Positions 24,470-44,794 of a DNA stretch of 64,000 bases are shown piece after piece. The notes below the pieces were generated by a model that did not search any database, was not told the DNA's origin, and saw nothing but the letters and a program-made list of their open reading frames with translations. How positions within the stretch are numbered: the first letter of the stretch is position 1; every line of letters begins with the position of its first letter. Both the position numbers and the translations under genes were made by a program. The stretch is from Planctomycetota bacterium. GTDB taxonomy: Bacteria; Planctomycetota; Phycisphaerae; Phycisphaerales; Phycisphaeraceae. Location: the NCBI GenBank assembly GCA_039025855.1, contig JBCCNL010000001.1, forward strand, positions 106,988-170,987. The letters are read 5' to 3'.

Positions 24470-25237
24470 CTAGGTCTGAGCCGTGGCGTGGGGTGGGTGG
24501 AGAGCGCTACCCGCTGCGGCGTGGGGATCGACTTTAACGAGACTGGGGTCGTCCGGCTCGCCGGGGCTCAGGTCGTGGCGGTCGTCCACGCCGTCGAACT
24601 GGAGCAGCCGCTTGTACATCGCCGGGTAGGACGCGCGGAGCCGATCGCCGAGGGCTCGGCGTTGTTCACGACGCCCGCGGTGGTCGTTGTGCAGCGGTTC
24701 GGGGTGGATCGGCTCACCGACCGCGACATGGACCGCCGCGTGCCGGAACGGCCGCCAGGTCGTAGCCCGGTTCATGGCGTGTGTCCCGATGAGCGCGATC
24801 GGGATGATCGGCACCTGGCCGTGCATCGCGAGGAAGCACGCCCCCTGCTTGATCGGGCCGCCGCGCATGGCCGAGTACTGGCGACGCGACACCCCGGCCT
24901 CGGGGAACACGCCAACGCGTTCACCCTCCGCCAACAGCTCAAGCCCGCGGCGCAGCGCCGGCCGTGGGTAGCCCTGCCGATGGACCGGGAACGCCCGAAC
25001 CGCACGAAGCGCCCAGGCCAGCAGGCGGGACTTGTAGAACTCAGTCCGCGCCATCCACCGCACCTCGTCGCGTAGCAGGATGCCGAGGACCAGCGGGTCC
25101 AGGTGCGAGATGTGCGTCGGCGCGATGATGCAAGGCCCGTCGACCCCGAGGTGCTCCGGGTTCAGGATGGTCGTGGGCATCGTGCACCACGTGATCGGCT
25201 TCACCAGCCAGCGTGCGGTTTGATAAGCCAGGGTCAT
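24470..25237 (-). CDS. Second PlsC-type acyltransferase-like protein.
   Basis: ORF 24470..25681 trimmed to the ATG at 25237 (MTLAYQTARWL...). Carries 'HISHLD' and 'FPEAG' motifs. ATGA overlap with the MMPL stop. Confidence 0.7.
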   Translation of the reverse strand: MTLAYQTARWLVKPITWCTMPTTILNPEHLGVDGPCIIAPTHISHLDPLVLGILLRDEVRWMARTEFYKSRLLAWALRAVRAFPVHRQGYPRPALRRGLELLAEGERVGVFPEAGVSRRQYSAMRGGPIKQGACFLAMHGQVPIIPIALIGTHAMNRATTWRPFRHAAVHVAVGEPIHPEPLHNDHRGRREQRRALGDRLRASYPAMYKRLLQFDGVDDRHDLSPGEPDDPSLVKVDPHAAAGSALHPPHATAQT

Positions 25238-27702: not shown

Positions 27703-27705
27703 GGG

Positions 27706-28497
27706 TCAATCGGGGCCGAACGCGAGGCTGAGCCGAGTCGCAAGACCGAGCCGGCGGCTTCCGGGCACCGGCTTGAAGTGGGCCGGCGTCAGTGATGGAT
27801 TGGGCTGGAACGCGTCAACAAGGAACTCCACAACCGGCTCCCCGCCCAGGCTCAGCCGCAGCGCGTCCACATGCGGCGCCGGCTCACCACTTCGATAACG
27901 CAGCTCGGTCGTCACCGGGCCATCGGGGCTCTGAACCAAGACCCGGTGAGTCGTCCGAGTGCTGCGGTGGACCCAGACCTCAGCGGGATGCTCGCCGATG
28001 AGGTCAGTCGTGTTGAACACTAGGTGATCGTCGGCCGACCGATCGAAGACCAGCGACTCGCTGCGGATCAATGCGAGCGGCAGTTCGATCGGTGCAGCGT
28101 CCGTCGCATCACCACCCGCGTCGTCGGCACGGCTCCGGGTCCAGACCCACGCCTCCCCGTCGGCATACACCAGGTCAATCGCGTTGCGACCGAGCTTGCT
28201 CGCGCGCAGCCGCAGGCGGGGTGATTCAGTCTCGAGCGCATCGATCAGCATGATCCCGTCCAGCCTTGTGGTTCGGCCTTCCCGCGACAGCAACACCGTG
28301 CCGACCGCCCGCCACGACGTGAGCCCCGCATCACGCTCCTGCATCGCCGCAAGCACCGCCTCGGGCGCCGCGTCTTCGTACACCGGCAGATCAACACCGG
28401 GGTGGTCGTACACACCGCCGCGCTGGAGACACCCCTGCCCGAGCACCGCGAACGCGGGCATCAACCACGCCCACGCCGAAAACACCCGGCCCGTCAC
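27706..28497 (-). CDS. LolA/LolB-like outer-membrane lipoprotein-sorting family protein (putative lipoprotein).
   Basis: The ORF track gives 27706..28602, but that overlaps the upstream gene by 109 nt. A GTG at 28497 forms a GTGA overlap with the upstream stop and yields the signal peptide MTGRVFSAWAWLMPAFAVLGQGC. Confidence 0.5.
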   Translation of the reverse strand: MTGRVFSAWAWLMPAFAVLGQGCLQRGGVYDHPGVDLPVYEDAAPEAVLAAMQERDAGLTSWRAVGTVLLSREGRTTRLDGIMLIDALETESPRLRLRASKLGRNAIDLVYADGEAWVWTRSRADDAGGDATDAAPIELPLALIRSESLVFDRSADDHLVFNTTDLIGEHPAEVWVHRSTRTTHRVLVQSPDGPVTTELRYRSGEPAPHVDALRLSLGGEPVVEFLVDAFQPNPSLTPAHFKPVPGSRRLGLATRLSLAFGPD

Positions 28498-29960
28498 GAG
28501 GGCACCGCCGACAACGCCTCGTCTGGCTGGGCGTGCCGGATCACTTTGCCCAACGCCGTGCGCGGCAGGTGTTCGCAGGCGAAGGTGCGCGGCACCTTCC
28601 ACGGCGCAAGGTGGTGCCGGCAGTGGCGTCGCAGTTCGGCCGCCGTCGGCGGGGCGTCGTCGTCGGTCGGCTCGATCACCGCGTTGAGCCGACTGATCGT
28701 GTGGTTCAGCCGCTCCTCACCGACGAGCGCTTCGCGGACGCCGGGGTGCAGCCGAAGGATGGCCTCGACCTCCATCGGGTTGACCTTGTTCGCACCGACA
28801 TCGATCAGCAGCTTCCGCCGTGCGACAAACCGGAAGTGCCCGTCGCGCCCGCGCACCCCCAGGTCGCCCGTCAGGAAACATCGCCGCCCCGCGATCTCAG
28901 TAAATGGAGGCTCGTGCTCGGCCTCGCCCAACGCGTCGATGTAGCCCGTCATCAGCGACGGGGCATCGACCGCGATCTCGCCCGTCATGCCGTCCGAGAC
29001 CGGCACCCGGCTGTCCGGATCCACGATGTGCATCGCCACCCCCGGCATCGGCCGCCCCAACCACCCGGCATCGTGCCCCGGCTCATGTGGGTCCGCCAAA
29101 CAGACCGAGCCCATCTCCGTCGCCCCGTAGTAGTTCGCCGCTTCAAGCCCGAGCTTGTCCCGGCAGGCATACCACAGCGGCTCGGGCAGCGTCGCACCCG
29201 CACAAAGCAGGCGACGCAGCGTCGGGAACGCCGGCTCACCCGGTTCGCCGCGGTGCATCTGCACGAGCATGTCGACCATGGCCGGGACCGCCGGCAGGAT
29301 CGTCGCACCGGTCTCATGGATCCGCTGCGCCAACCGGTCCGGCGTGAACGCGTTCTCCAGCTCGACACGCGACCCCGCCAACAGCGGCGCAAGCAGCCCC
29401 GCCTCCAGCCCATACGCATGGGTCAACGGCACCGCCGCAAACACGGTGTCGCCAGCCAGGTACCCCACCGACGTGCAGACCTGACACGCCACCGCGTCCA
29501 CCGCCGCCGCCTCCCGCCGCACCACCTTCGAACCGCCAGTCGTGCCCGATGACGGCAGCGCCAGCCAGCCGCGTAGTTCGACCGGTCCATCCGTCCGCTG
29601 CGTGTCCAACGAGGCCCCCTCCGCCACCGACTCCTCCACACGCACCGTCACCCCAACACCCGCCTGCTGCGCCACGCGCCGACGCTCCGCGTCCGGCAAG
29701 CGATCCGACATCGGCAACACCCCATACCCCAGATGCCACAACGCAAACAGGTGCACCACCATCCCCGGCGTCGAGCCGCCCACCAGCCCGACGGGCCGCG
29801 CCGCGTCCGGCCCGGGCAGCTCCGACGCCAACCGCTCCGCGCAGCCCAGCACCAGGCCCGGCAGCTCCCCGTAGCTCACCTCCACCTCACCCAGCCGCAG
29901 CAGAACCCCGGACGGCGACCGCTGCGCGTGCTGTTGAATCGCCTGACTGATCCCTTGCAT
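28494..29960 (-). CDS. AMP-dependent synthetase/ligase (aryl/acyl-AMP ligase; starter-unit activation).
   Basis: 'LPSSGTTGGSKVV' AMP-binding motif plus the A8-A10 core. ATG at 29960 (MQGISQAIQQ...). Confidence 0.8.
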   Translation of the reverse strand: MQGISQAIQQHAQRSPSGVLLRLGEVEVSYGELPGLVLGCAERLASELPGPDAARPVGLVGGSTPGMVVHLFALWHLGYGVLPMSDRLPDAERRRVAQQAGVGVTVRVEESVAEGASLDTQRTDGPVELRGWLALPSSGTTGGSKVVRREAAAVDAVACQVCTSVGYLAGDTVFAAVPLTHAYGLEAGLLAPLLAGSRVELENAFTPDRLAQRIHETGATILPAVPAMVDMLVQMHRGEPGEPAFPTLRRLLCAGATLPEPLWYACRDKLGLEAANYYGATEMGSVCLADPHEPGHDAGWLGRPMPGVAMHIVDPDSRVPVSDGMTGEIAVDAPSLMTGYIDALGEAEHEPPFTEIAGRRCFLTGDLGVRGRDGHFRFVARRKLLIDVGANKVNPMEVEAILRLHPGVREALVGEERLNHTISRLNAVIEPTDDDAPPTAAELRRHCRHHLAPWKVPRTFACEHLPRTALGKVIRHAQPDEALSAVPS

Positions 29961-30266
29961 AGCTCTACTGTTGAAGCGAACCGGAGGCCGCCCCCAGAAT
30001 ATGGCAGAGCAGCGTTTTCCGCCAAATCGCCATGGCCCACCCAGTACAGCACGCAAACGCCCCGCAACCCCCAGCAGGCCCCGCAAAGCCCCAGAAACGC
30101 CTGAATGACCCCTGTTCGTGTCAGACGTGCAACAGAGGGGTCTGCTAGATTGATCCGCGGCAGAGGGGGGGCCTCCCCCCAGCCGATTGACGGATGTTCA
30201 ACCCGTTCCGCGGGTTCTCAGGTCGATCACCGCGTCCCTGCCGCGCCCGCTCCGGAGAGGTGTCCC
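29961..30266. promoter_or_regulatory. Divergent intergenic region between the aryl-polyene operon and the NfeD-flotillin operon. Contains a G7/C6 near-palindrome at about 30163..30181.
   Basis: Non-coding gap of 306 bp. The GGAGAGG SD-like sequence sits just before the ATG at 30267. Confidence 0.3.
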
Positions 30267-30917
30267 ATGGCCGACTTCATCACAGCCTGCACGCAGAGCC
30301 CCACCAACCTCGTGTTGTCCGTGCTCCTGGTGCTCATCATGCTGTACTGGATCGTCGTCATCATCGGGGCCGTCGGCATGGACAGCCTCGACTTCGATTT
30401 CGACTTCGACGGCGATGTCGACCTCGCCCTCGACGGCCACACCAGCCTCTTCGGCGCAGGCATCGGCCTCTCGTTCCTCCGGTTCTTCCACGTCGGCACC
30501 GTGCCGCTGCTCATCCTGGTCTCCGTCTTCGTCCTCATGATGTGGGCCATCGGCGTGATCAGCTACCCGCTCATTGGCAACTGGGGCATCCTCCTCCAAC
30601 TGCTCATGCTGGTCCCCTTCGCGATCGGCGCAATCCTCCTGACCAAAGTCCTCACGCTGCCGCTTCGTGTCTTCTTCGACAAGCTCAAAGCCCAGGAAGC
30701 CGCCGAGCAAAGCGTCAACCTCATCGGCCAACGCTGCGAAGTCGTCTCCCTCACCGCCACCCACCGGCACGGGCAGGTCAAGGTCGCCACCGACGGCTCC
30801 CCCCTGCTGCTTAACGTCGTAACCCCCGACGAATCGATCACCCTGAACAAGGGCGACGAAGCCGTATTGATCTCCCAGGACGCCGACTCAAGCGTCTTCA
30901 CCATCCAGGGGTTTTAA
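30267..30917 (+). CDS. NfeD/YqiJ-like membrane protein (TM helices + C-terminal OB-fold beta-barrel), partner of flotillin.
   Basis: ORF 30105..30917 trimmed to the ATG at 30267 (MADFITACT...), with GGAGAGG upstream. Several TM helices, a 'DFDFDFDGD' acidic loop and a C-terminal 'VKVATDGSPLLLNVV...' OB-like segment. Confidence 0.65.
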   Translation: MADFITACTQSPTNLVLSVLLVLIMLYWIVVIIGAVGMDSLDFDFDFDGDVDLALDGHTSLFGAGIGLSFLRFFHVGTVPLLILVSVFVLMMWAIGVISYPLIGNWGILLQLLMLVPFAIGAILLTKVLTLPLRVFFDKLKAQEAAEQSVNLIGQRCEVVSLTATHRHGQVKVATDGSPLLLNVVTPDESITLNKGDEAVLISQDADSSVFTIQGF

Positions 30918-30941
30918 ACCCCCGCTCCGGAGCACACTGCC

Positions 30942-33059
30942 ATGCTGCAACTCCTACCAACCCTCGGCCTCGCCACGCAGACGATGTTCGTCCTCGTTGT
31001 GGCCGGCATCGTCGGCTTCATCCTCGTCGTCGCGATCGTCGCCACCGTCGCCAAGTTCTACGTCAAGGTCGAGCCCGGGACCGCACTGGTCCGCCGCGGC
31101 CAGGGCGGCGGCCAGGTGTCCTTCAACGGCAAGCTGGTCATCCCCATCGCCCACCGCGCCGACATCATGGACATCTCCGTCCGGCGTATCGAGATCTACC
31201 GGCACGGCTCAGAGGGCCTGATCTGTAAAGACAACGTCCGCGCCGACATCAAGGTCGCCTTCTTCGTCCGCGTCAACAACGTCGACAAAGACGTCCTCCA
31301 GGTCGCCGACTCCATCGGCGTCAAGCGTGCGTCCCAGCTCGACGCCCTCGTCGAGCTCTTCGACGCCAAGTTCTCCGAAGCCCTGAAAACCGTCGGTAAG
31401 AAGTTCGACTTCACCGAGCTCTACACCGAACGCGAACGCTTCAAAGACGCCATCCTCGAACACCTCGGCACCGACCTCAACGGCTACGTCCTAGACGACG
31501 CCGCGATCGACTACCTCGAACAGACCGAACTCGGCAAGCTCGACCCCAAGAACATCCTCGACGCCGAGGGCATCAAGAAGATCACCGACCTCACGGCACG
31601 CGAAGCGATCCTTGCCAACGACATCTCCCGCGAGAAAGAAAAGACGATCACCAAGCAGGACGTCGAGGCCCGCGAGGCGATCCTCGAGCTCGAGCGCCAG
31701 CAGGCCGAGGCCGAGGCCAAGCAGGCCCGCGAGATCGCCACCGTCCAGGCCCGCGAGCAGGCCGAGTCCCAGAAAGTCGAAGAGGAGGAGCGGTACAAGT
31801 CGGAGAAGGCCCGCATCGCAACCGAAGAAGAGCTCGGTATCGCCGAAGAAAACAAGCTGCGGCAGATCCTCGTCGCCCAGCGGGCCAAGGAACGCACCGA
31901 CGCGGTCGAGACCGAGCGTGTCCAGCGTGAGCAGGGCCTCGAGATGACCGAACGCGAGCGCGTCGTGGAACTGGCCCGGATCGAGAAGGAGACCGCCCTT
32001 GAGGTCGAACGCAAGAAGATCCAGGACGTCATCCGCGAACGCGTGGTGGTCGAGCGGGCGGTGGTCGAGGAAGAGCAGAAGATCAAGGACACCGAAGAGA
32101 TCATGACTGCCGAGCGGGCCAAGAGCGTGCAGGTCACCACGGCCACGGCACAGGCGGAAGAAGAGAAGATCAAGGAAGTGAAGAAGGCCGAGGCCGCGAA
32201 GCTGGCGAGCCAGTTCGAGGCCGACGAGATCCTGATCGAGGCCGAGGCCAAGCGGGCCGCGGCTGAGAAGGAAGCGCTGGCCAAGATGAAGCTGGCCGAG
32301 GCCCGTCAGGCCGAAGCCGCCGCGGACGGCCTCGCCGAGGCCGAGGTCATGGACGCCAAGGCCGGGGCCGTTGAGAAGTACGGCACCGCCGAGGCCGAGG
32401 TCGTCCAACGCAAGCTCGAAGCCGAGGCCAAGGGCGACTTCGCCAAGGCCGAGGCCATCAAGGCCAAGGGCAGCGCCGAGGCCGACGTCATGCAGGCCAA
32501 GTACGCCGCCGAGGCCGACGGTGTCGCCGGCAAGGCCGAGGCCATGAAGAAGCTCGACGGTGTCGGCAAAGAACACGAAGAGTTCAAGCTCAACCTCGAC
32601 AAACAGCTCCAGGTCGAGCTCAAGCAGATCGACATCCACAAGGACATCGCGGCCGAACAGGCCAAGGTGCTCGGCGAAGCGCTCAAGTCCGCCAACATCG
32701 ACATCGTCGGCGGCGAGTCCGAGTTCTTCGACACCATCATCCACGCGATCACCAAGGGCAAACAGGTCGACCGGCTCGTCGACAACTCCGACCACCTCGC
32801 CCGGCTGTCCGACTCGCTCCTGTCCAGCAACGGCGACGGCACCACCCTCGCCGACCGTATCGGCGACTTCGTCTCCCGCTCCGGTATCGACAGCGACGAC
32901 GTCAAGAACCTCTCGATCGCCGCGCTCATCGGCAAGATGATCGCCGACTCCAGCGACCAGGGCGTCGTCAACGAGCTCAAGAACCTGCTGAGCCTGTCCA
33001 AAGCCGCCGGGTATGCCGACCAGAAACTCGCCAGCCTCGGCGTCAAGGCCCGCGCCTGA
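30942..33059 (+). CDS. Flotillin-like SPFH/band-7 protein with a long EA-rich coiled coil (YqiK-like).
   Basis: N-terminal TM hairpin, then an SPFH domain ('ALVRRGQGGGQVSFNGKLVIPIAHRADIMDISVRRIEI'), then about 400 aa of E/A/K/R coiled-coil repeats. Confidence 0.85.
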   Translation: MLQLLPTLGLATQTMFVLVVAGIVGFILVVAIVATVAKFYVKVEPGTALVRRGQGGGQVSFNGKLVIPIAHRADIMDISVRRIEIYRHGSEGLICKDNVRADIKVAFFVRVNNVDKDVLQVADSIGVKRASQLDALVELFDAKFSEALKTVGKKFDFTELYTERERFKDAILEHLGTDLNGYVLDDAAIDYLEQTELGKLDPKNILDAEGIKKITDLTAREAILANDISREKEKTITKQDVEAREAILELERQQAEAEAKQAREIATVQAREQAESQKVEEEERYKSEKARIATEEELGIAEENKLRQILVAQRAKERTDAVETERVQREQGLEMTERERVVELARIEKETALEVERKKIQDVIRERVVVERAVVEEEQKIKDTEEIMTAERAKSVQVTTATAQAEEEKIKEVKKAEAAKLASQFEADEILIEAEAKRAAAEKEALAKMKLAEARQAEAAADGLAEAEVMDAKAGAVEKYGTAEAEVVQRKLEAEAKGDFAKAEAIKAKGSAEADVMQAKYAAEADGVAGKAEAMKKLDGVGKEHEEFKLNLDKQLQVELKQIDIHKDIAAEQAKVLGEALKSANIDIVGGESEFFDTIIHAITKGKQVDRLVDNSDHLARLSDSLLSSNGDGTTLADRIGDFVSRSGIDSDDVKNLSIAALIGKMIADSSDQGVVNELKNLLSLSKAAGYADQKLASLGVKARA

Positions 33060-33114
33060 CCCGGCCGTTCTTCACGCATCCGCTGAGCTGCACCCGCCGT
33101 GCCCAGAGTAATCG

Positions 33115-36100
33115 ATGGCTGAAACTCCAGAAGCCACATCCGAGGCCCTGCCGGAGGACCCCACCCCGTCCCAGGGTCCGAGCCACGACCAGATCGACCA
33201 GGGCGCCTACGAGGTCATCCGACGCCGGCTCGACACGCACGGCCGGGACCTCCGCACCCGCCTCGATCAGCTCAACGCCCGCCGCAAAGAAGTCTTCGGG
33301 TCCATCGACTTCAAGCTGATCGACAACGAGCGGATCACCACGGGCAACAACTGCGTCCCCCGCGACATCGCCGCCGTCGGCGACCGCTTCCTGATGGGCT
33401 TCAACGTCCACTTCGGGCTCAAATCCCACGTCGAGCTCGACGACGTCTTCGCGATCTACCGGTTCGACGGCAGCACCTTCCACGCCGACGACCTTTCGCT
33501 CCTCGATAACGAAGACTTCGCCAAGGACTTCACCGACCTGTTCCGTTTTTACAAGAACGCCAAGTTCGCCAAGTTCTTCCGCGAAGGCCCGCACGTCTAT
33601 ATGAAGTTCCACGTCGGGCGCGACGTCGATGACTTCAAGGCCTTCAAGTGGGCCATCGAGGGCGAGTCCCTCCGCTACATGGGCAACCGCTCCGACCACG
33701 AGGTCCGCTACCCCGAGCAACACGACTTCACCTGGACCCGCGCGACCCGCGAGATGCAGACCCAGGGCGCGTTCCCGCACTACTCGATCGAAGACATCGT
33801 CTTCGTCGAAGCGACAGGTGGCGACTTCACCATCAAGGTCGAAGACAACAGCAACACCGGCGAGGGCATCTACGTCGAGCCGGTCGAGAACGCCGACCAG
33901 TCCCTCGACGACGCCGAGATCCACTACTGCGTCGTCGGGCACATCGTCCTGCTCAAGGTTCGGCCCTATCAGGAACGCAACTTCCGGTACTACATCTTCA
34001 ACGCCAAGCTCCAGCAGGTGCACCGCGAAGACAGCCTCGGCGAGGCCTGCGTCCTCCTCCCCGAGAGCCACGGCCTAGTCTTCTCCCGCGGCTACTACCT
34101 CGCCTCCGGCAAATACCAACGCTTCCCCGGCATCCCCGACGACCTCATCTTCGAACGCAAGATCTCCGCGCCCAACGGCGAAGACTTCGCCTTCCTCTTC
34201 TATCACCGCCGGCAGGGCATCTACGTCATCCTCGCCTACAACCTGATCGACCAGTCGATCGACACCCCGCTGGTCACCAACGGCTACGCATTCTTCGGCG
34301 ACGGCCGCGTCGTGTTCTTCAAGACCCCCGAAGACGCCGAACCCCAGAAACACCACGCGATCCAGGTCTGGCAGACCCCCTTCGTCGGGCCCAACTACGT
34401 CGCGCCGCCCGGCGAGGAGTCCTACCTCTCGAAGATCGGCAACCGCGACATTGTGCGTGGCATGGCCGAGTGCGTTGAGGTCCTCGAACTGCTCTCCCGC
34501 GAAGACCTCTACTCCGACCTCTACGTCGATCTGGTCAAGACCACCTCCGACCTGCTCGACGCCTACTTCTGGCTCGACCACGACGAGTCAGCCAACCTCG
34601 CCGAGCCCCTGGGCGAGATCAAGACCGCCGCCGAAGCCGCGATCGGCGAGTACGAAAAGGTCACCCGGATCCGCCGAAACACCGAGCGGCAGATCGCTGC
34701 CGTGACCCGCGAGGCCGAAGACCTGGTCAACACCAACGCGACCCGGATCTACGACAACATCCTCGTCTACGTCGAAGCCCTCGCGTCGCTCCGAGAAGTC
34801 CGGGGCAAGACCATCGCGCTCAAGGAGCTGCGTTACGCCGACCTCAAGCACATCGACGAACTCGAAGAGCGGGTCAAGGACCAGACCGCGTCACTGTCGC
34901 AGCGCTGCGTGGACTTCCTGCTCGACGAGAAGTCGCTCACGCCCTACCAGGCCGCCGCCGAGGAGCACGACGCAAAGATCGACAGCCTGACCAAGGCGAC
35001 CGACGCGAAGGAGCTCGCCGAGCTGGTCCAGAAGAGCGCCGACGAGCTCGAGATGCTGATCGAGATCGTCGGCAACCTCCGCATCGAAGACACGACCCAC
35101 CGCACCGAGATCGTCGACAACATCTCAGCGATCTTCGGCCAGCTCAACGCCACCCGCACCCGCCTCCGCAACAAGCAGCAGGAGCTCGGCCGGGCCGAGG
35201 GCGTCTCCGAGTTCAACTCCCAGCTCAAGCTGCTGAACCAGTCTGTCGTCAACTACCTCGACCTGTCCGACGACCCGGAGAAGACCGAGCAGTACCTCAC
35301 GAAGGTGATGGTGCAGATCGAAGAGCTCGAGGGCCGGTTCGCCGAGTTCGACGAATTCGTGATCCAGCTCACCGAGAAGCGGGACGAGGTGTACACCGCG
35401 TTCGAGAACCGCAAGCTCCAGCTGGTCGAGAAGCGGAACAAGCGGGCCGACGCACTCGGCCAAGCGGCGGGCCGCATCCTCAGCAGCATCAAGTCCCGGG
35501 TCGACGGGATGGAGCAGATCAACGCGATCAACAGCTACTTCGCCAGCGACCTGATGATCGACAAGGTCCGCGACATCTGCGAACAGCTGGCCGAGCTCGA
35601 CGACACGGTCCGGGTCGACGACATCCAGTCCCGGCTCAAGGCGATCCGCGAGGACGCTGTCCGCCAGCTCAAGGACCGCCAGGACCTCCAGGCCGACGGC
35701 CGAAACACCATCCGCTTCGGGCGACACGTCTTCTCGGTCAACAACCAGGCCGTCGACCTCACCACGATCACCCGCGGCGGCGAGATGAAGCTGCACCTAA
35801 CCGGCACGCAGTTCTTCGAAGCCATCGAAGACCAGCAGCTGCTGGAAACACAAGACGTCTGGTCGCAGGAGGTCGTCTCGGAAGACACCACGGTCTACCG
35901 CGCCGAGTACCTCGCCTACCTCATGCACGAGCAGCTCACACGCGGCGAACCCGCCGAGCTGCAGGCCTTGCTAAAGGAGACCGACGACGACAGCGACCCG
36001 ATCCTCGACGCGGTGCGGTCCTTCATGGGGCCACGTTACAGCGAGGGCTACACCAAGGGCGTCCACGACGCCGACGCCGCCGTCCTCCTGCGGGCCCTGC

Positions 36101-38661
36101 TCGAGATGCACGGCTCTGTCGGCCTGCTCCGCTACCGCAGCGCCGCCCGGGCCATGGCCGGCTACTGGTGGGCCACGCTCGAAGACCGCCGGCTCCGCGA
36201 ACGCCTCACCCATCAGCTCGCCGGCTTCGGCACCGTCGGCGACGTCTTCGCCTCCGCCACCCAGCAACGCGCCTACATCGACGAGCTGTCCCAACACCTC
36301 CACCGCTTCGCCGAAGGCCTCGACCTTTTCGACGCATCGCTCTCATCAGAAGCGGGCGAGTACCTCTTCTATGAGCTGACCGAACCCAAAGACGGGCTCG
36401 TGGTCAGCCCCGAAGCGGCCGAGCTGTTCGACGCCTTCAACAACCACCTCCGCGGCAACCGCTCGCTGAAAAAGTTCCGCGACTCGATCGAAGCCCTCAA
36501 CGACGCCTGGCTCGCCCGCTTCGGCCTCATCCGCGACTGGGCCCACGCCTTCCTCAGCGAGAGCGACGACTTCCCGTCCGACATCTACCGCCACTACGCC
36601 GACGAGTTGGCCCTGCTCCTGCTGCACGGCAAGCCCCCGACCGACCGCATCCACACCGCGAGCGTCCGCCGTGAGCTCGACGGGCTCATCGGCTCACACG
36701 CCGTGATCGATCAGGGCCAATACAGCCTGGACTACAACGAGTTCCTCGCCCGCCTCCGCCACTTTGCCGGCCACACCGTCCCCCGCTTCGAGGCCTACAC
36801 CCACCTGAAACAACAGCTGCTTGATGCTGCCCGCGACGAGATGCGGCTGGACGAGTTCAAGCCCAAGGTCCTCACGTCCTTCGTCCGCAACCAGCTCATC
36901 GACAAGGTCTTCCTCCCACTGATCGGCGACAACCTCGCCAAGCAGATGGGCACCGCCGGGACGGACACCCGCACCGACCGCATGGGCCTGCTCCTGCTCA
37001 TCTCCCCGCCCGGCTACGGCAAGACCACCCTCATGGAGTACATCGCCAACCGCCTCGGCGTCATCTTCATGAAGATCAACGGCCCCGCGATCGGCCACTC
37101 CGTCACCTCCATCGACCCCGCCGAGGCCACCAACGCCGCCGCCCGCGAAGAGCTCGAAAAACTCAACCTCGCCTTCGAGATGGGCGACAACGTCGTGATC
37201 TACGTCGACGACATCCAGCACACCCACCCCGAGTTCCTGCAGAAGTTCATCAGCCTGTGTGACGCCCAGCGGCGCATCGAGGGCGTGTACAAGGGCAAGA
37301 CGCGGACCTACGACTTCCGCGGGCGGAAGGTCGCCGTGGTCATGGCGGGCAACCCGTACACCGAGTCGGGCGAGCGGTTCGCGATCCCCGACATGCTCGC
37401 CAACCGGGCCGACACCTACAACCTCGGCGACATCATCGGCGACCACGCCGAGGCCTTCAAGATGTCGTACCTCGAGAACTGCCTCACCTCAAACCCCGCG
37501 CTCAACGCCCTCGCGTCCCGCAGCCAGAAAGACGTCTATGGCGTGATCAAGATCGCGGAGACCGACAGCCGCGACGGCGTCGAGTTCGAGGGCAACTACG
37601 GCCGGGACGAGCTCGACGAAATGGTCAACGTGATGAAGAAGCTCATCACCGTCCGCGACGTCATCCTGAAGGTCAACCTGCAGTACATCGCCTCGGCCGG
37701 GCAGGAAGACGCCTACCGCACCGAACCCCCCTTCCAACTCCAGGGCTCGTACCGGAACATGAACCGCATCGCCGAGCGGGTGGTCCCCGTGATGAACGAC
37801 GCGGAACTGCAAACGCTCATCTCCTCGAGCTACGAGCAGGACGCGCAGACCCTGACAACCGGTGCCGAGGCCAACCTGCTCAAGCTCCGCGAGATGTTGG
37901 GCTGGATCACCGATGAGGAGGCCGAGCGTTGGGACGACATCAAGCGGACATTTGTCCGCAACAACTCGGTCAACGCGCTAGGCGGTGACGACAAGACGGC
38001 CGCGGTGCTGACGCAGATGGCCGGCCTCAATCAGGGCCTCGGCGACATCGGCAGCGCACTGTCGACCGGCCTCGATGCTTTGAAAGATGCGGATGCATCA
38101 ACGGATGAGGCGGAACCGATCGCGATCGATCTCGCCCCGCTCGCCGAGCAGATGGCGTCGTTCGCCCAGGGGCTCACGGGTATCCGCGAAGCCATGGCGA
38201 CTGTCGCCGAACGCGCCGCGGCGCCAGTCCCACAAGCACCCAAGCCCGTACCGCAGAACGGCCCCGTCGAAGCACGTTTCGACCAGGGCACGCTCGACGC
38301 GATCCAGGCCCTCACCCAGCAGATGGCCGAGCAGGCCCGGGCCGCGCCGCACTCGCCCGCTATCAACGGCGAAGTACCCGTCTCGAACCGCCCCACCGAC
38401 GAACCGGACGACCCCCCGCACGAGATCCGCGTGATCAACAAGATCCCCGCGACGTTCCTCTACGTGATGAAGGAGCAGTTCAAGCTGATGCAGGCCTGGA
38501 TGGAGCCGCTGACCCGGATCACCGCCGACCAGGACGACCAACTCAAGCAGATGCGGGGCTCCATCCAGCAGATCGTCTCGCGGTACGACGACATGATCCA
38601 ACGGCTCGAGAAGAAGCGGGCGTCCGCCGGAGACGAGATCGATGACGACGCCGATGCTTAG
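33115..38661 (+). CDS. 1848-aa protein of unknown function. An AAA_5/MoxR-like ATPase core lies at about residues 1270-1450, preceded by a beta-rich N-terminal region and a long coiled coil.
   Basis: Walker A 'LLLLISPPGYGKTTL', Walker B 'VVIYVDDIQHTHPEFLQKFISL' and sensor-1 'VAVVMAGNPYTE' match the MoxR/AAA_5 pattern. The rest matched no family I recognise. Confidence 0.75.
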   Translation: MAETPEATSEALPEDPTPSQGPSHDQIDQGAYEVIRRRLDTHGRDLRTRLDQLNARRKEVFGSIDFKLIDNERITTGNNCVPRDIAAVGDRFLMGFNVHFGLKSHVELDDVFAIYRFDGSTFHADDLSLLDNEDFAKDFTDLFRFYKNAKFAKFFREGPHVYMKFHVGRDVDDFKAFKWAIEGESLRYMGNRSDHEVRYPEQHDFTWTRATREMQTQGAFPHYSIEDIVFVEATGGDFTIKVEDNSNTGEGIYVEPVENADQSLDDAEIHYCVVGHIVLLKVRPYQERNFRYYIFNAKLQQVHREDSLGEACVLLPESHGLVFSRGYYLASGKYQRFPGIPDDLIFERKISAPNGEDFAFLFYHRRQGIYVILAYNLIDQSIDTPLVTNGYAFFGDGRVVFFKTPEDAEPQKHHAIQVWQTPFVGPNYVAPPGEESYLSKIGNRDIVRGMAECVEVLELLSREDLYSDLYVDLVKTTSDLLDAYFWLDHDESANLAEPLGEIKTAAEAAIGEYEKVTRIRRNTERQIAAVTREAEDLVNTNATRIYDNILVYVEALASLREVRGKTIALKELRYADLKHIDELEERVKDQTASLSQRCVDFLLDEKSLTPYQAAAEEHDAKIDSLTKATDAKELAELVQKSADELEMLIEIVGNLRIEDTTHRTEIVDNISAIFGQLNATRTRLRNKQQELGRAEGVSEFNSQLKLLNQSVVNYLDLSDDPEKTEQYLTKVMVQIEELEGRFAEFDEFVIQLTEKRDEVYTAFENRKLQLVEKRNKRADALGQAAGRILSSIKSRVDGMEQINAINSYFASDLMIDKVRDICEQLAELDDTVRVDDIQSRLKAIREDAVRQLKDRQDLQADGRNTIRFGRHVFSVNNQAVDLTTITRGGEMKLHLTGTQFFEAIEDQQLLETQDVWSQEVVSEDTTVYRAEYLAYLMHEQLTRGEPAELQALLKETDDDSDPILDAVRSFMGPRYSEGYTKGVHDADAAVLLRALLEMHGSVGLLRYRSAARAMAGYWWATLEDRRLRERLTHQLAGFGTVGDVFASATQQRAYIDELSQHLHRFAEGLDLFDASLSSEAGEYLFYELTEPKDGLVVSPEAAELFDAFNNHLRGNRSLKKFRDSIEALNDAWLARFGLIRDWAHAFLSESDDFPSDIYRHYADELALLLLHGKPPTDRIHTASVRRELDGLIGSHAVIDQGQYSLDYNEFLARLRHFAGHTVPRFEAYTHLKQQLLDAARDEMRLDEFKPKVLTSFVRNQLIDKVFLPLIGDNLAKQMGTAGTDTRTDRMGLLLLISPPGYGKTTLMEYIANRLGVIFMKINGPAIGHSVTSIDPAEATNAAAREELEKLNLAFEMGDNVVIYVDDIQHTHPEFLQKFISLCDAQRRIEGVYKGKTRTYDFRGRKVAVVMAGNPYTESGERFAIPDMLANRADTYNLGDIIGDHAEAFKMSYLENCLTSNPALNALASRSQKDVYGVIKIAETDSRDGVEFEGNYGRDELDEMVNVMKKLITVRDVILKVNLQYIASAGQEDAYRTEPPFQLQGSYRNMNRIAERVVPVMNDAELQTLISSSYEQDAQTLTTGAEANLLKLREMLGWITDEEAERWDDIKRTFVRNNSVNALGGDDKTAAVLTQMAGLNQGLGDIGSALSTGLDALKDADASTDEAEPIAIDLAPLAEQMASFAQGLTGIREAMATVAERAAAPVPQAPKPVPQNGPVEARFDQGTLDAIQALTQQMAEQARAAPHSPAINGEVPVSNRPTDEPDDPPHEIRVINKIPATFLYVMKEQFKLMQAWMEPLTRITADQDDQLKQMRGSIQQIVSRYDDMIQRLEKKRASAGDEIDDDADA

Positions 38662-38771
38662 GCCCACCGCTGCCCGCGGGGCTGTCGGCCTCGTGCGTCC
38701 GTGCCCTGCGAGCCGATATAGAATGCGTCCGCAAAACACCCTGCGGTTGCCTTGTTGATAGGAGCTCGAAC

Positions 38772-39593
38772 ATGTTCAAAGCCATCGGCCGATACTTCCG
38801 TGCACTGGGTTACCTCGTCACCGGCCGTATCGACGCCGCCCGCAGCGCCCTGTCCACCAGCCCCCACGTGGTCAACGCGACCTACGACCAGATCATCGAC
38901 GACAAGAAGAAGTCGATCCAGCAATACAAAGACGCCATCGCCCGGCTGATCGTGCAGCACGAGGGCAAGATGTCCAAGATCAAGGACGAGAGCGACTCGC
39001 TCAACCGCCTCGAACAGATGAAGGAAGGCGCCGCCGCCAAGGCCCGCTCCGTGGTGGCCGAGATGAAGGCCACCGGCGCGACGCTCGAGCAGATCAAGGC
39101 CGGCGAGGACTACCAGAAGTGCATGCTCGCCTACCAGGACTTCTCCTCGAAGATCGAAGAGAAGACCCCGCGGATCGCTGAGCTCGAATCCGATGTGAAG
39201 GAGATGGACGCGACGATCTCGGGGCACAAGCTGCAGCTCACCGAGATGCTGCGGGAGATCGAAAACCTCCGCGGCGAGCAGGCCGAGGCGGTCGCCGAGA
39301 TCATCACCGCCAAGGAGACCGCCGAGCTGAACGACATGCTCTCGGGCATCAGCAAGGACCGCACGTCGCGTGAGCTGGCCGACATGCGTCAGCTCCGCGA
39401 GGAGATGAAGGCCAAGGCCAAGGTCTCCAAGGAGCTGGCCGGCACCGACACGAAGGTGCAGGAGGACGAGTTCGTCCGGTATGCCCAGGAGAGCAAGACC
39501 TCCGATGAGTTCGACGCGTTGATCGGGCTGGCTGAAGAAGCGGACAACGCGACCCCCGACAACCCAGAGCGCGAGCCCCGGCTGCCGGAGTAG
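38772..39593 (+). CDS. PspA/IM30 (Vipp1, ESCRT-III-like) family coiled-coil protein, putative.
   Basis: 273-aa all-helical protein. N-terminal amphipathic 'MFKAIGRYFRAL'. 'KAGEDYQKCMLAYQD' resembles the conserved PspA 'kaGrEDLAReAL' motif. GGAG lies before the ATG. Confidence 0.5.
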   Translation: MFKAIGRYFRALGYLVTGRIDAARSALSTSPHVVNATYDQIIDDKKKSIQQYKDAIARLIVQHEGKMSKIKDESDSLNRLEQMKEGAAAKARSVVAEMKATGATLEQIKAGEDYQKCMLAYQDFSSKIEEKTPRIAELESDVKEMDATISGHKLQLTEMLREIENLRGEQAEAVAEIITAKETAELNDMLSGISKDRTSRELADMRQLREEMKAKAKVSKELAGTDTKVQEDEFVRYAQESKTSDEFDALIGLAEEADNATPDNPEREPRLPE

Positions 39594-39618
39594 ACCACCA
39601 CTGGTCCAACTCCAGCGG

Positions 39619-41436
39619 GTGACGCGTGGTGCCTTTGTCCGGTCGTCGATGAATACTCCCCCGCCACAACACGCCTTCTTCAGCGACCTCGCCCGCATGC
39701 TCAACGCCGGGCAGTCGCGCAGTGTCATGCTGACCGGCGAGGTCCACGACCTGTTCTACCTTGAGGCCGCCGACCGCTACGTCCCGCTGGTCCCCTACCT
39801 CTGCCGGCGATGCTCGGTCGAGGGCGTCGTCCCCCTGGTCTACGAGCTCAACGGCCCGATCCGCTGCACCAACGCCGGCGACCGCAGAACCCTCAAAGAA
39901 GCATGGGTCCGCTGGAAGACCGGCCAATCCCTCGACCAGCTCATCCTCCAATCGCTCAACGACGAGTCGGCCCGCCAGCGCCGCGAGTCCCTCGAAGAAC
40001 AGTTCGACCGACTCACCGCCGAGGCCGCCGGCCGACCCACCGCCGCCCTCGAGATGCTTCGGCAACTCACGCTCTGCTCCCGCGCACAAGCGGCACTCGG
40101 CGGCAAGCGGTTCCGGCTGCTCATCCTGGTCGAGGCCGCCGATATGCTCCTCCCCGCGGCCGACGGCGACATCACTCGGCTCAGCGCCAGCGACCGCCAG
40201 CGCGTCGCCATCTGCCAAGACTGGTTCAGCGATCCCGCCTTCATGGAGGGCGACGACAGCGTGGTACTCCTCGCCGAGTCCCGCAGCGCCATCCACCCCC
40301 GCGTCACCCGCCTGCCCCAGATGCTCACCGTCGAGGTCCCTGCCCCCGACGAGGCCCGGCGTGCCTTCTACATCGAACGCTTCACCCGCGACCGCCCGGT
40401 CAAAATCGACATGGGCACCGACGGCCTCGCCCGCCTCTCCGCCGGGCTTTCGCTGCACGCGTTGCGTCAGCTCCTGGTCGCCTCCGCCCACACCGGCACA
40501 TCCATCACCCACCACGCGGTCATCGACCTCGTCGAGCACCACATCACCAGCGCCCTCGGCGAGGGCGTCGTCGAGTTCAGCAAACCCTCGCACACCCTCG
40601 ACGATGTCGTGGGTCACCGCCGGCTGCGCGCGTTCCTCAACGACGAGCTGATCCCCCGCATCAAGTCGACCGGCGAAGACGCCCTGCCCGGCGCCGCGAT
40701 CGCCGGCCCAATCGGCTCGGGCAAGACCTTCGTCTTCGAGGCCGTCGCGGGCGGGCTCGGCCTCCCCGTCCTCGTGCTCAAGAACATCCGCAGCCAATAC
40801 TTCGGGCAGACCGACGTCATCTTCGAGAAGCTCCGACGCGTCCTCGAAGCGCTCGGCAAGGTCATCCTGTTTGTCGACGAGGCCGACACCCAGTTCGGCG
40901 GCGTCGGCGGCGACGCCCACCCCACCGAACGCCGGCTCACCGGCAAAATCCAGGCTTTGATGAGCGACCCCAAGCTCCGCGGCCGAGTCGTCTGGCTGCT
41001 CATGACCGCACGCATCGAACGCCTCAGCCCCGACATCCGACGCCCCGGCCGAGTGGGCGACCTCATCATCCCCGTGCTCGACCCCGCCCCGGGCAGCGAC
41101 GATCGCCGCGACTTCCTCCGCTGGGTCCTCAAGGGCGTCTTCGACCACCCCGACGACGCACTCCTCAATGAACTCGACCAGCTCACCCCCGGCTACTCCG
41201 CCGCCGCCTTCGCCGCCCTCCGCTCACTGCTCAAAGCCAAGGCCGCCGCGCAAGGCCAGCTCGACGCCGCCACCATCCGTGAGGTCGTCGCCGACGTCAT
41301 CCCCGCCGACATCGGCGACCAACGCGAACGCCAGACCCTCCAGGCCCTGCTCAACTGCACCCGCCGATCACTCCTGCCCGACCCGGACATCGACGAGTCC
41401 ACCCGCGAGGCGTGGCGGCGAGCCCTCGGCCAGTGA
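39619..41436 (+). CDS. Classic-clade AAA ATPase with a ~330-aa N-terminal (degenerate ATPase-like/substrate) domain.
   Basis: Walker A 'GPIGSGKTFV', Walker B 'VILFVDEAD', second region of homology 'RPGRVGDLIIPVLDP'. GTG at 39619; an alternative ATG lies at 39649. Confidence 0.8.
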   Translation: MTRGAFVRSSMNTPPPQHAFFSDLARMLNAGQSRSVMLTGEVHDLFYLEAADRYVPLVPYLCRRCSVEGVVPLVYELNGPIRCTNAGDRRTLKEAWVRWKTGQSLDQLILQSLNDESARQRRESLEEQFDRLTAEAAGRPTAALEMLRQLTLCSRAQAALGGKRFRLLILVEAADMLLPAADGDITRLSASDRQRVAICQDWFSDPAFMEGDDSVVLLAESRSAIHPRVTRLPQMLTVEVPAPDEARRAFYIERFTRDRPVKIDMGTDGLARLSAGLSLHALRQLLVASAHTGTSITHHAVIDLVEHHITSALGEGVVEFSKPSHTLDDVVGHRRLRAFLNDELIPRIKSTGEDALPGAAIAGPIGSGKTFVFEAVAGGLGLPVLVLKNIRSQYFGQTDVIFEKLRRVLEALGKVILFVDEADTQFGGVGGDAHPTERRLTGKIQALMSDPKLRGRVVWLLMTARIERLSPDIRRPGRVGDLIIPVLDPAPGSDDRRDFLRWVLKGVFDHPDDALLNELDQLTPGYSAAAFAALRSLLKAKAAAQGQLDAATIREVVADVIPADIGDQRERQTLQALLNCTRRSLLPDPDIDESTREAWRRALGQ

Positions 41437-42715: not shown

Positions 42716-44794
42716 TCAGAAACTCAACCGCTCCGCGTGCTCTTCATCGCGCACCAACACCTGCCGCCGCTGGTGCGTCGCCATGCGTCCCGCCCGACGC
42801 TGCGCCGCCCGGAACAGCCACCCCAACACCCACCCCGGTAGACGCACCGGCACCGACTTCAACAGCCGCCGACGCACCGGCGTGAACTTCACCAGCAGCG
42901 GATCGTCCAGGCTCGTGATCACCGTCGCCGTCCCCGGCTCGCCCTGCCGTGCGCTGCGACCTTCAAGCTGCCGATCTACCCGGCGTGACTCGTGACGATC
43001 CGTCGCAATCACCGCCAGCCCGCCCCGCTCGACCACGCCCTCAGGCAGCTTGATGTCCGTCCCCCGACCCGCCATGTTCGTCGCCACCGTCACCCGCCCC
43101 AGCTGCCCCGCCTCCGCGACAATCGCCGCCTCCTGCTCGTGCAGGTGCGCGTTTAGCACCGCATGCGGAACGCCCGCGCCCGTCAGCCGAACGCTCAGGC
43201 TCTGGCTGTCATCCACACTCCGCGTGCCCACCAGCACGGGCCGACCCGCAGCGTGCATTTCCCTCGTCAGCTCTGTCACCGCGTCCCACTTGGCATCCAA
43301 CGTCGGCAGCGGCCGAACAGTCTGGGTCTCGCGGCGGCATACCCGGTGCGTCGGGATCCGCACCGTCTGCATCCGATAGGTCCGCCAAAGCTCCGCCCGT
43401 TCTCCCCACGCGGTCCCGGTCATCCCGCTCAGCCGGCGGTACAGCCGGAAGAACCGCTGGAAGCTGATCGCCGCCAGCGTGTGGTTCAGGTCGCTGACCT
43501 CCAGGCCCTCCTTCGACTCGACCGCCTGGTGCAGCCCCGCCTGCCACGTGCGGTCGGGCATCAGCCGGCCCGTGCTCTCGTCCACAATCACCACCTTGCC
43601 ATCCTGCACCACGTACTGGTCGTCGCGCAGATACAGGTACTGCGCCACCAACGCCTGATACACCCGCTCTTCCAGGCGACGCACCGGGCTACGGTCCGCA
43701 TCGCCTCTCGAACCCACCAACCGCTTGATGTGTTGCCGACCCGCCTGCGTCAGGCGCAGGTCCCGGTGCCGCCGATCCAGCCGGAAGTCGCGGTCGGGCT
43801 GCAGCCGCGCCGCCAACGCCGTGGCGTCCCGATACGTGAACTCCCGGGCGTCGCCGCCCGGTGCCGTATCCGCCTTCGGCCCCGAAATAATCAACGGCGT
43901 CGTCGACTCATCAAGCAAGATCGAGTCGGCCTCGTCAATGATCGCCGCCTCACCGCGGAAGAACCGGCCCTGCGACCGCGTCGACTCACCCGTCAGGTTC
44001 CGGGCCAGAACCGAAGCGAGCGGCATCGACGCACGATCGGTCTGCGCCTGTTCCTGCAGCAGGTCACGCAGGTAGTCCGCGGCCGCCTCCTTGTGCGTCG
44101 TGTACGTGATGTCGGCCGCATACGCGCTGCCCCGATCGTGAGGCGGCGTGCCACCCGTGATGTAAGCCACGCGCAGCCCCGCGCCGCCAAACAACGGCTT
44201 GGCCCACTGGGCGTCCCGTTTAGCCAGGTAGTCGTTCACGGTGAAGACGTGACAACCCCGGCCGTGCCACCCGACCAGGCAGGCGGCCAGCGCCGCCACC
44301 AGCGTCTTGCCCTCGCCCGTCGCCATCTCCGTCATCCGGCCATCCAGCAACGCCGCGGCCGCCGCGACCTGCACGCGGTACGCATTGAGCCCCAGGGTCC
44401 GCCGCGCCGCCTCCCGGATCAGCGCGAGCGCTTCAACCCGCTGCTCGACCGTGACCGACCCTCGCCGAAACACCGCACGCTGCTCCGCCAGCCGCCCGCT
44501 CAACGCATCGATGTGCAACTCCCTGCACACCGCCTCCTGCGCGAGCACGCGGTCCGCCAAACGCAGATAACGACGCACCGAACACCGCCCCGCAACCAGG
44601 TGCGACGCGACCCACTCGTACACCGCATCGGCATGCCGACGCGGCTTCGCCGGCTGCCGGTTATGCGATCGGCTCCGCCACGCCTCCCCATCACGCCACA
44701 GCTTCGCCAGCGCCGGCGTCTGCAACTCACCCGGCCGCGCTACGCCCACGGGCTGGTTCGGGTCAGACGGGAACAGCGTGGTCAGGCTCGACAT
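42716..44794 (-). CDS. SecA-like ATPase paralogue (NBD1-PPXD-NBD2-partial HSD; the C-terminal ~200 aa of canonical SecA is absent).
   Basis: 'TEMATGEGKTLVAALA...VNDYLAKRDAQW', 'IIDEADSILLDESTTPLIISG' and 'GMTGTA...ATNMAGRGTDI' align to SecA motor motifs. The ATG at 44794 overlaps the upstream stop by 1 nt (TGATG). Confidence 0.75.
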   Translation of the reverse strand: MSSLTTLFPSDPNQPVGVARPGELQTPALAKLWRDGEAWRSRSHNRQPAKPRRHADAVYEWVASHLVAGRCSVRRYLRLADRVLAQEAVCRELHIDALSGRLAEQRAVFRRGSVTVEQRVEALALIREAARRTLGLNAYRVQVAAAAALLDGRMTEMATGEGKTLVAALAACLVGWHGRGCHVFTVNDYLAKRDAQWAKPLFGGAGLRVAYITGGTPPHDRGSAYAADITYTTHKEAAADYLRDLLQEQAQTDRASMPLASVLARNLTGESTRSQGRFFRGEAAIIDEADSILLDESTTPLIISGPKADTAPGGDAREFTYRDATALAARLQPDRDFRLDRRHRDLRLTQAGRQHIKRLVGSRGDADRSPVRRLEERVYQALVAQYLYLRDDQYVVQDGKVVIVDESTGRLMPDRTWQAGLHQAVESKEGLEVSDLNHTLAAISFQRFFRLYRRLSGMTGTAWGERAELWRTYRMQTVRIPTHRVCRRETQTVRPLPTLDAKWDAVTELTREMHAAGRPVLVGTRSVDDSQSLSVRLTGAGVPHAVLNAHLHEQEAAIVAEAGQLGRVTVATNMAGRGTDIKLPEGVVERGGLAVIATDRHESRRVDRQLEGRSARQGEPGTATVITSLDDPLLVKFTPVRRRLLKSVPVRLPGWVLGWLFRAAQRRAGRMATHQRRQVLVRDEEHAERLSF

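Follow-up and report, generated by a model that had tools for sequence, protein, structure and literature searches.

In this work we analyse a 64,000-nucleotide stretch of DNA (called the window throughout) from a marine member of the Phycisphaeraceae (Planctomycetota), where five co-oriented plus-strand open reading frames (ORFs), denoted here by g1 to g5, encode an NfeD-like membrane protein, a flotillin, a giant AAA+ protein, a divergent relative of PspA/Vipp1 and a tandem AAA ATPase. We propose, with a probability that we put at about 55%, that g1–g5 form a Phycisphaeraceae-specific and apparently co-transcribed block, which joins two older and widespread modules, namely g1-g2-g3 (module A) and g4-g5, and which serves the maintenance and remodelling of the membrane under envelope stress, with g5 recycling g4. 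The gene order, the domain identities and the extent to which each module and the junction between them are conserved, from which the proposal is built, are read directly from the sequences and are presented first.

Layout of the cluster

The cluster begins with g1 (30267..30917, with an alternative start at 30105), a YqiJ/DUF1449 (NfeD-like) protein having three hydrophobic helices and, at its C-terminus, an OB-like tail. It is followed by g2 (30942..33059, 705 aa), a flotillin-type SPFH protein with an N-terminal transmembrane (TM) anchor, a Band_7 domain, a coiled coil and a C-terminal flotillin-like region, and by g3 (33115..38661, 1848 aa), in which DUF3686, DUF7902 and an AAA+ core are combined. 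The last two genes are g4 (38772..39593, 273 aa), belonging to a divergent PspA/Vipp1 clade within the ESCRT-III superfamily, and g5 (39619..41436, 605 aa), a tandem classical AAA ATPase with a degenerate first domain (D1) and an active second domain (D2). According to the ORF list, the intergenic gaps from g1 to g5 are, in order, 24, 55, 110 and 25 bp. For g1 the ATG at 30267 is taken as the start, since the alignments with homologues begin at the first residue of the protein translated from it, and for g5 the start could be the ATG at 39649, which would give the 595-aa NCBI model (P0121) and a 55-bp gap after g4.

Shine-Dalgarno (SD)-like motifs are located 7–11 nt upstream of three of the genes, with GGAGAGG lying 7 nt from the ATG of g1, GGAG before g2 and AGGAG before g4, and no such motif is present upstream of g3 and g5. 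It is noted that the five ORFs, their gaps and the three SD-like sequences were given in the same way by an earlier reading of the letters alone (the sequence-only reading). In the scan of 29.5–42 kb there is no sigma-70-like promoter site and no terminator-like hairpin in the plus-strand gaps, with the frequency of terminator-like hairpins in this region being not above that in shuffled sequence, and the tRNA and Rfam scans of the window gave no RNA genes. The nearest database proteins come from metagenome-assembled genomes (MAGs) of Planctomycetota/Phycisphaeraceae.

Module A: g1, g2 and g3

Compared with the Pfam family YqiJ_N, g1 stays just under the cut-off of 23 (E = 6e-4, 20.4 bits). 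By BLASTP it is collinear with E. coli YqiJ across 189 aa, the C-terminus included (E = 3e-4), and with a protein of Hymenobacter that carries the DUF1449 annotation it shares 34% identity (E = 3e-29). Three hydrophobic helices are present in its sequence and its gene lies 24 bp upstream of the SPFH gene g2, as would be expected for a protein of the NfeD/YqiJ (DUF1449) type, to which we assign g1 from its sequence, with the OB-like tail being putative. The earlier identification of g1 as NfeD/YqiJ-like is thus upheld by the DUF1449 relative, though YqiJ_N itself falls below the cut-off.

The full-length sequence of g2 gave no match in Pfam and NCBIfam, and its SPFH domain is detectable only after the coiled-coil region is removed. 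With the first 253 residues as the query, Band_7 is matched at 2.3e-11 and 44.5 bits (cut-off 23.6), the domain covering aa 42–203 (nt 31065–31550, plus strand), which bears out the proposed flotillin. The remainder is an E/A-rich coiled coil, where the match to the Flot domain (PF15975) is weak and not significant (E = 1, 9.9 bits). Over its full length g2 is 52% identical to a Hymenobacter plasmid protein encoded between the DUF1449 and DUF3686 genes, and its Streptomyces relatives carry the annotation 'flotillin family protein'. A single-sequence search of the PDB sequences with g2 gave nothing useful.

In g3, DUF3686 covers aa 45–485 (nt 33247–34569; Pfam E = 3e-179, 596.6 bits), DUF7902 covers aa 607–690 (nt 34933–35184; Pfam 86.7 bits), and the AAA core, with Walker A GYGKT and Walker B VDDIQ, covers aa 1293–1416 (nt 36991–37362), all on the plus strand. 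With this combination encoded directly downstream of the flotillin gene, g3 is a DUF3686 AAA+ protein of the kind whose N-terminal part was called a beta-propeller by Ravi et al. (mSystems 2024, PMC11237479). The AAA core named in the sequence-only reading is present, but its assignment to the MoxR/AAA_5 type finds no specific support, as the Pfam scores of the core for AAA (32.2 bits), AAA_22 (29.6) and AAA_5 (28.0) are nearly equal. The top matches of g3 among the PDB sequences are to p97 near the P-loop (E = 2.6e-7), and g3 is 50% identical across 1635 aa to a Hymenobacter 'DNA repair ATPase'.

As to this name, the DUF3686 proteins in RefSeq that we found on plasmids or chromids (L088-L090, L171-L173) are called 'DNA repair ATPase' or 'DNA repair protein', and their genes are always beside a flotillin gene. 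If the name, which stands in the Pfam description of DUF3686 as well as in these product names, were correct, g3 would be a DNA-repair ATPase and the cluster would act on DNA, with which the weak SMC/RuvB-like scores of g3 and g4 would agree. However, the RuvB matches span merely ~47 residues at the P-loop, the SMC matches of g4 are coiled-coil noise far under the cut-offs, the genes that invariably neighbour g3 encode membrane proteins, and no paper backing the label was found by literature search. We regard a role in DNA repair as hardly credible, and the product name seems to be a misannotation that has been propagated.

The PspA/Vipp1 relative g4

Searching the PDB sequences with the single sequence of g4 gave nothing useful, and with a profile made from 30 close relatives Vipp1 comes to the top of the PDB list at E = 0.017 only. 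Against 1.84 billion cluster representatives, this 30-sequence profile delineates a discrete family, with 595 representatives at E <= 1e-3 and nearly all of them having ~270 aa. PF04012 (PspA_IM30) is matched by 16 of 64 members of the family, the best one at E = 3.4e-7. With a profile (A3) built from 64 diverse family representatives, which are 28–49% identical to g4, Vipp1/PspA proteins take all of the first eight places among the distinct PDB sequences (best E = 1.1e-8). The A3–Vipp1 alignment is collinear, with residues 39–96 of the query corresponding to 30–87 of Vipp1 and residues 132–250 to 98–213 (helix 1, and helices 2/3 to 5).

The AlphaFold2 (AF2) model of g4 is a long helical hairpin with helices at 31–100 and 112–241. 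The overall predicted local distance difference test score (pLDDT) is 76.7, being above 90 over aa 30–170 and of low confidence in the N-terminal region. The top Foldseek matches of the model are the Vipp1 structures 6zvr, which is the best one, and 8qbw, over ~250 columns at a modest E = 1.5e-3, with other helical hairpins scoring close behind.

Both ends of the protein are conserved across phyla in the 80 loci of the g4-side survey, where one genome per GTDB species was scanned with the g4 family and the loci were tabulated by tblastn. The N-terminus, MF+AIGRYFRALGYL, is amphipathic, with a hydrophobic moment of 0.59 over aa 1–18. The C-terminal tail of g4, EFDALIGLA...RLPE (aa 246–273, nt 39507–39590, plus strand), has the form that is common to the family, with an EFDxLIGLA motif, an acidic linker and the terminal LPE. 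This LPE is present in 78 of the 80 loci, and the other two (L018 and L019) end in LRE. It is also observed that the two LRE-ending loci are the two genomes with no g5 in the block. This may point to a coupling of the tail with the ATPase, which, coming from a single lineage, is only a hint.

Taking the profile searches and the model together, we place g4 in the ESCRT-III superfamily as a true, though divergent, member on its PspA/Vipp1 branch, not on the Snf7 side, with the hairpin, further helices and the N-terminal amphipathic helix alpha0 predicted as in PspA/Vipp1. The PspA-like character noticed from the sequence alone is thus confirmed at the level of the family profile and the predicted fold. 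In the same searches the matches of g4 to SMC, JetC and LmuB were rejected as coiled-coil noise, far under the cut-offs.

The tandem AAA ATPase g5

With phmmer, the PDB matches of g5 are to VAT, p97 and AFG2 (E = 6e-23 for VAT). The first AAA domain (D1, aa ~19–313) is degenerate, with GEVHDLF in the P-loop position, and the second one (D2, aa ~357–565) has Walker A GPIGSGKT, Walker B DEAD, the pore loop SQYFG and RRPGR in the second region of homology (SRH). Among 30 g5 homologues, GPIGSGKT, DEAD, SQ[YW]FG and RRPGR are invariant. The AF2 model of g5 (pLDDT 88, predicted template modelling score 0.82) matches Rix7, p97/VCP, Cdc48 and AFG2 in Foldseek across ~640 columns at E ~1e-17. In this model residues 19–313 are folded as an alpha/beta core and lid, not as a three-helix MIT domain, and with D1 starting at aa ~19 there is no N-terminal double-psi-barrel substrate/adaptor domain before it. 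Moreover, D1 lacks the nucleotide-binding P-loop, unlike that in the type II ATPases Cdc48, p97 and VAT. The match of g5 to CdvC is at E = 5.6e-4 only, and there is a weak resemblance to the defence ATPase IetA (E = 1e-7).

The sequence and the model show g5 to be a classical AAA ATPase of the tandem D1-D2 kind, in which D1 is dead and an N-domain and an MIT domain are both lacking. The classic-clade AAA identity with the SRH, as given in the sequence-only reading, is thus retained, but the likeness to Vps4 suggested there does not extend to the architecture, because g5 has no MIT domain and has the tandem D1-D2 arrangement. Thus g5 is no member of the Vps4 family, though its action may be Vps4-like.

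Conservation of the modules and of their junction

In the g4-side survey, g3 is located upstream of g4 in 19 loci, all belonging to one clade, which consists of Phycisphaeraceae and unclassified Planctomycetota/Phycisphaerae MAGs and in which the identity to g4 is at least 69%. In 17 of these 19 species-level genomes g5 is also present, and the complete g1–g5 order is found wherever the contig extends far enough. The two exceptions, L018 and L019, are sister genomes which keep g1–g4 and which have, elsewhere in the genome, a second g4-like gene with an ABC (ATP-binding cassette) transporter and a g5-like gene after it (L042, L033). In five sister species (L013, at 8752-9750; L015, L016, L020 and L021), an extra gene for a ~330-aa helical protein with two TM helices is present between g3 and g4. 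The genes flanking the block vary between genomes with the block being retained, and because the flanking genes differ we consider the block to be a discrete unit. Such conservation of the order goes beyond what chance juxtaposition of the five genes would give.

The five-gene block was found only in this Phycisphaeraceae clade, and at the g4-like loci outside it there are no g1–g3 genes. The pairing of g4 with g5, by contrast, is not limited to the clade. Among the 71 informative loci in GTDB genomes, 55 have g5 downstream of, and co-oriented with, a g4-like gene, with the pairing seen in Planctomycetota, Verrucomicrobiota, Hydrogenedentota, Acidobacteriota and Nitrospiraceae, and many contigs of 4–9 kb contain both genes. 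The two genes are either adjacent or ~3 kb apart, the insert then encoding a binding protein, a permease and an ABC ATPase. The g4-like gene is immediately preceded, in 39 loci (including L002, L027, L032 and L033), by a gene whose ~250-aa product has two TM helices at its N-terminus and a coiled-coil tail. This ~250-aa family, having no match in Pfam, may be the 'TM + divergent Snf7' protein of Ravi et al., and its homology with the ~330-aa two-TM protein mentioned above is not significant (hhalign E = 0.018).

The neighbourhood of g5 also bears on the possibility that g5 is a general unfoldase of membrane proteins or other clients at the flotillin domain, comparable to FtsH in the HflK/C cages, with g4 being only its adaptor or anchor. 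The Cdc48-like architecture and the intact pore loop, as found in general segregases, are consistent with such a role, as are the ABC transporter that many operons of this family include and the observation that about half of the metagenomic g5-like genes have no g4-like gene within 7 kb. On the other hand, no substrate-binding N-domain is recognisable in g5, no other neighbour of g5 is as strongly or as widely associated with it as the g4 family, and g4 carries an invariant terminal motif of the type that unfoldases recognise. We judge a general unfoldase to be improbable, and prefer g5 as the recycling enzyme of g4.

Module A has its own distribution, with g2-g3, usually together with g1, recurring across five phyla. 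When the N-terminus of g3 was searched by tblastn against plasmid records, 13 replicons from several phyla were matched, and in six of them, from four phyla (those of Hymenobacter, Pseudomonas pQBR103, Deinococcus, Proteus, Streptomyces and Vibrio), genes like g2 and g3 are adjacent, with identities of 33–52% to g2 and 39–50% to g3. None of these six replicons has g4 or g5. In Hymenobacter and pQBR103 the first genes of the string are those of a Tir/YjfI chaperone and of a PspA/IM30 protein of the canonical kind. PspA is thus linked to the flotillin module there as well, and has been recruited to it independently at least twice.

Since g1–g3 are 34–52% identical to the Bacteroidota plasmid triad, module A may have been acquired horizontally, and it is noted that the GC (guanine plus cytosine) fraction over the cluster (window 30001–40000) is 0.63–0.65, as compared with 0.68–0.70 on either side. 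With module A being often on plasmids or megaplasmids and patchy across phyla, with the GC dip across the cluster, and with g5 having some likeness to IetA, one could also consider an anti-phage or conflict system, which senses infection at the membrane and responds by membrane disruption or abortive infection. We think this quite improbable, since the PADLOC models match the block only by generic P-loop or coiled-coil similarity, nuclease, protease and toxin domains are absent from it, and the five-gene order is constant across the Phycisphaeraceae species despite their differing flanks.

Proposed mechanism and its weighing

The physical interactions, the substrates of the two ATPases and the physiological role that we propose for the block are as follows. 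In module A, the cytoplasmic membrane would carry an SPFH cage or microdomain formed by g2, whose NfeD-type partner would be g1, and g3 would be a dedicated ATPase servicing the g2 microdomain, by analogy with HflK/C-FtsH. Then, g4 would bind the stressed membrane by its N-terminal amphipathic helix and polymerise, with precedents in Vipp1 and PspA and in the SPFH protein YdjI, by which PspA is localised in B. subtilis. Finally, g5 would act as a Cdc48-like hexameric unfoldase, whose D1 ring is inactive and whose D2 ring is active and carries the aromatic pore loop, and would thread the g4 subunits through the D2 pore and thereby recycle the polymer, perhaps by gripping the invariant tail EFDxLIGLA...LPE. 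The nearest analogy for this action of g5 on the g4 tail is that of cpHsc70-1, which takes VIPP1 apart via the VIPP1 C-terminal tail (bioRxiv 10.1101/2025.05.20.655051). In this mechanism g5 would be a functional analogue of Vps4, not an orthologue. The sequence-only reading had likewise ascribed the turnover of PspA-like polymers to the AAA ATPase or ATPases, and it is in this sense that we infer the turnover of g4 polymers by an AAA ATPase.

Several points weigh against the block acting as proposed. Firstly, taken alone, g4 misses the gathering cut-off of PF04012 (16.3 vs 33.9 bits), and the hhalign comparison of the g4 family with single PspA sequences (E. coli and Hymenobacter) is not significant, with E = 0.003 only for A3 against the Hymenobacter PspA; these hhalign comparisons are counted as uninformative because the templates have no sequence diversity. 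Secondly, in literature searches on DUF3686, on YqiJ/YqiK with an ATPase and on PspA with Cdc48 no experimental work on these five families was found. Thirdly, a g4-like gene is within 7 kb of g5 in only 31 of 60 informative metagenomic loci, so that the g4-g5 link is strong and yet not obligatory in cis. Fourthly, the modules are separable, with L018 and L019 having g1–g4 without g5 in cis, and the junction is confined to one clade and may be a single inherited event. Lastly, because a 110-bp gap precedes g4 and the extra ~330-aa gene of the sister species sits there, g4-g5 could be a separate transcription unit.

The same features can be taken further, by supposing that g1–g3 and g4–g5 are independent neighbours and that their junction is a neutral rearrangement kept by descent. 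In most lineages each module indeed occurs without the other, the genomes having the junction all fall in one clade, so that the 17 of 19 could go back to a single event that was then inherited, and the gap before g4 is 110 bp, with a gene inserted there in some relatives. Yet if the modules were independent, it would not be expected that PspA genes of a different subtype lie beside the same flotillin module in Bacteroidota and Pseudomonadota, which points to a functional tie, nor that g4 stayed with g1–g3 in L018 and L019 when g5 was lost from the block, nor that the junction persisted when the flanking genes changed. We thus consider independent neighbours as unlikely, though the most serious of the alternatives, and favour the coupling of the two modules because PspA-type genes have been recruited independently to the flotillin module and because L018 and L019 kept g4 with g1–g3. 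As compared with the integrated five-gene machine of the sequence-only reading, what stands is the order conserved in Phycisphaeraceae and the link between PspA and flotillin elsewhere; what has to be given up is the indivisible unit, the block being a lineage-restricted junction of separable modules.

A bolder form of the proposal is that the g4-g5 pair represents an ATP-driven recycling of ESCRT-III in bacteria, where the g5 family disassembles the g4 polymers via their tail, and that in Phycisphaeraceae this is wired to the flotillin/NfeD cage and the DUF3686 ATPase so as to give one two-motor apparatus for membrane repair or scission. We hold this only tentatively, its chance being clearly short of even. 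If it is true, such a bacterial recycling machine would overturn what a 2025 review (PMC7619361) states, namely that an ATPase like Vps4 'appears absent in bacteria'. How the bacterial ESCRT-III relatives PspA and Vipp1 are disassembled is an open question, for which g4-g5 is a candidate conserved in multiple phyla and offers experimental handles, namely the invariant g4 tail, the intact g5 pore loop and the dead D1 as a possible docking site. The Phycisphaeraceae block gives, in addition, a physical hint that g4-g5 work together with flotillin scaffolds and the DUF3686 ATPase. The internal membranes of Planctomycetota are unusually elaborate, and because of this a two-ATPase membrane-remodelling set in this phylum is a reasonable target of study. 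The surprise is limited, as both halves of the block have already been noticed by comparative genomics.

Other genes in the window

Divergent from g1, a run of minus-strand genes for biosynthesis and export occupies 14198-30086. It includes an FAD halogenase-like gene (14198-15544), a ketoacyl synthase (16436-18703), a GT2 glycosyltransferase (22133-23458), an MMPL transporter (25234-27702) and an AMP-binding enzyme (28494-30086), all on the minus strand, and looks like a lipid or polyketide-type cluster. On the other side of the block, at 42716-49073 on the minus strand, there are in a row a 721-aa SecA-like protein, an M50 peptidase–PqqD-like fusion and an HlyD-family protein, which may be a set for the processing and export of a peptide.

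Further away, a sulfatase (50188-52053), a GH2 glycosidase (54920-57418) and a porphyranase-like protein (61433-63334) fit with a marine polysaccharide-degrading lifestyle. The window also encodes a 1343-aa cadherin-like/Calx-beta/PA14/GSDH protein (9855-13886). The region 4001-6000 has an extreme composition, with a GC fraction of 0.718, a GC skew of -0.49 and an AT skew of +0.41, and the 547-aa minus-strand ORF at 4401-6044 gave no match in Pfam.

Comparison with known systems

The sequence-only reading knew of no characterised system with this composition. This does not hold for the parts, because Ravi, Aravind, Gennaro and colleagues have reported both modules from computational analysis in the work cited above (PMC11237479). 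The first is an operon of YqiJ/YuaF, a band-7/flotillin protein and a protein with a beta-propeller, a coiled coil and AAA+, which is linked to CesT/Tir-PspA (ANH61663.1, Dokdonia) and of which shorter versions without PspA are widespread. The second, in their Text S2.2 and Table S3, is PspA with a dyad of 'inactive classical AAA + classical AAA' and, optionally, an ABC transporter and TM+Snf7 genes, as exemplified by AEY64321.1 (Clostridium) and OGG56892.1 (Handelsmanbacteria). The joined five-gene arrangement was found neither in Ravi et al. nor elsewhere in the literature.

Compared with the flotillin operon of Ravi et al., g1, g2 and g3 match gene for gene, with the Hymenobacter version being 34%, 52% and 50% identical, respectively. 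As annotated, the order on the Hymenobacter plasmid is Tir chaperone, PspA/IM30, DUF1449, hypothetical protein and 'DNA repair ATPase'. The difference lies in the PspA part. The PspA-family gene here is downstream of the ATPase gene, whereas there it is upstream, and g4 is of another PspA clade, lacks a CesT/Tir (YjfI) partner and comes with its own tandem AAA ATPase. Compared with the PspA–AAA dyad, g4-g5 share the architecture of a two-domain classical AAA with a dead first domain, where the likeness is drawn from the published description. The relatives outside Phycisphaeraceae hold the transporter genes between the pair and the gene for two TM helices and a coiled coil beside it, whereas the pair in the window has lost both the transporter and the two-TM gene and is attached to the flotillin module.

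An SPFH scaffold that is tied to PspA localisation or to an AAA+ enzyme has two further precedents. In B. subtilis the SPFH protein YdjI localises PspA to the membrane (PMC8581546), and in HflK/C-FtsH an SPFH cage surrounds an AAA+ machine (reference 61 of PMC10936438). The block resembles pspA-ydjGHI and HflK/C-FtsH in this respect, but the families are different from those of g2 and g3, with FtsH being a protease and YdjI a soluble SPFH protein that bears a zinc ribbon, and a DUF3686 ATPase and a tandem AAA partner for PspA are absent from both systems.

Lastly, we compare g4-g5 with ESCRT-III/Vps4. Unlike Vps4 and CdvC, g5 has no MIT domain and has two AAA cassettes instead of one, its best matches being Cdc48, p97, VAT, Rix7 and AFG2, and g4 is on the PspA/Vipp1 side. 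Like ESCRT-III/Vps4 (CdvB/CdvC), the pair places a gene of the ESCRT-III superfamily beside that of a classical-clade AAA with a pore loop and the SRH, and the conserved C-terminal tail of g4 could act like a MIM motif.

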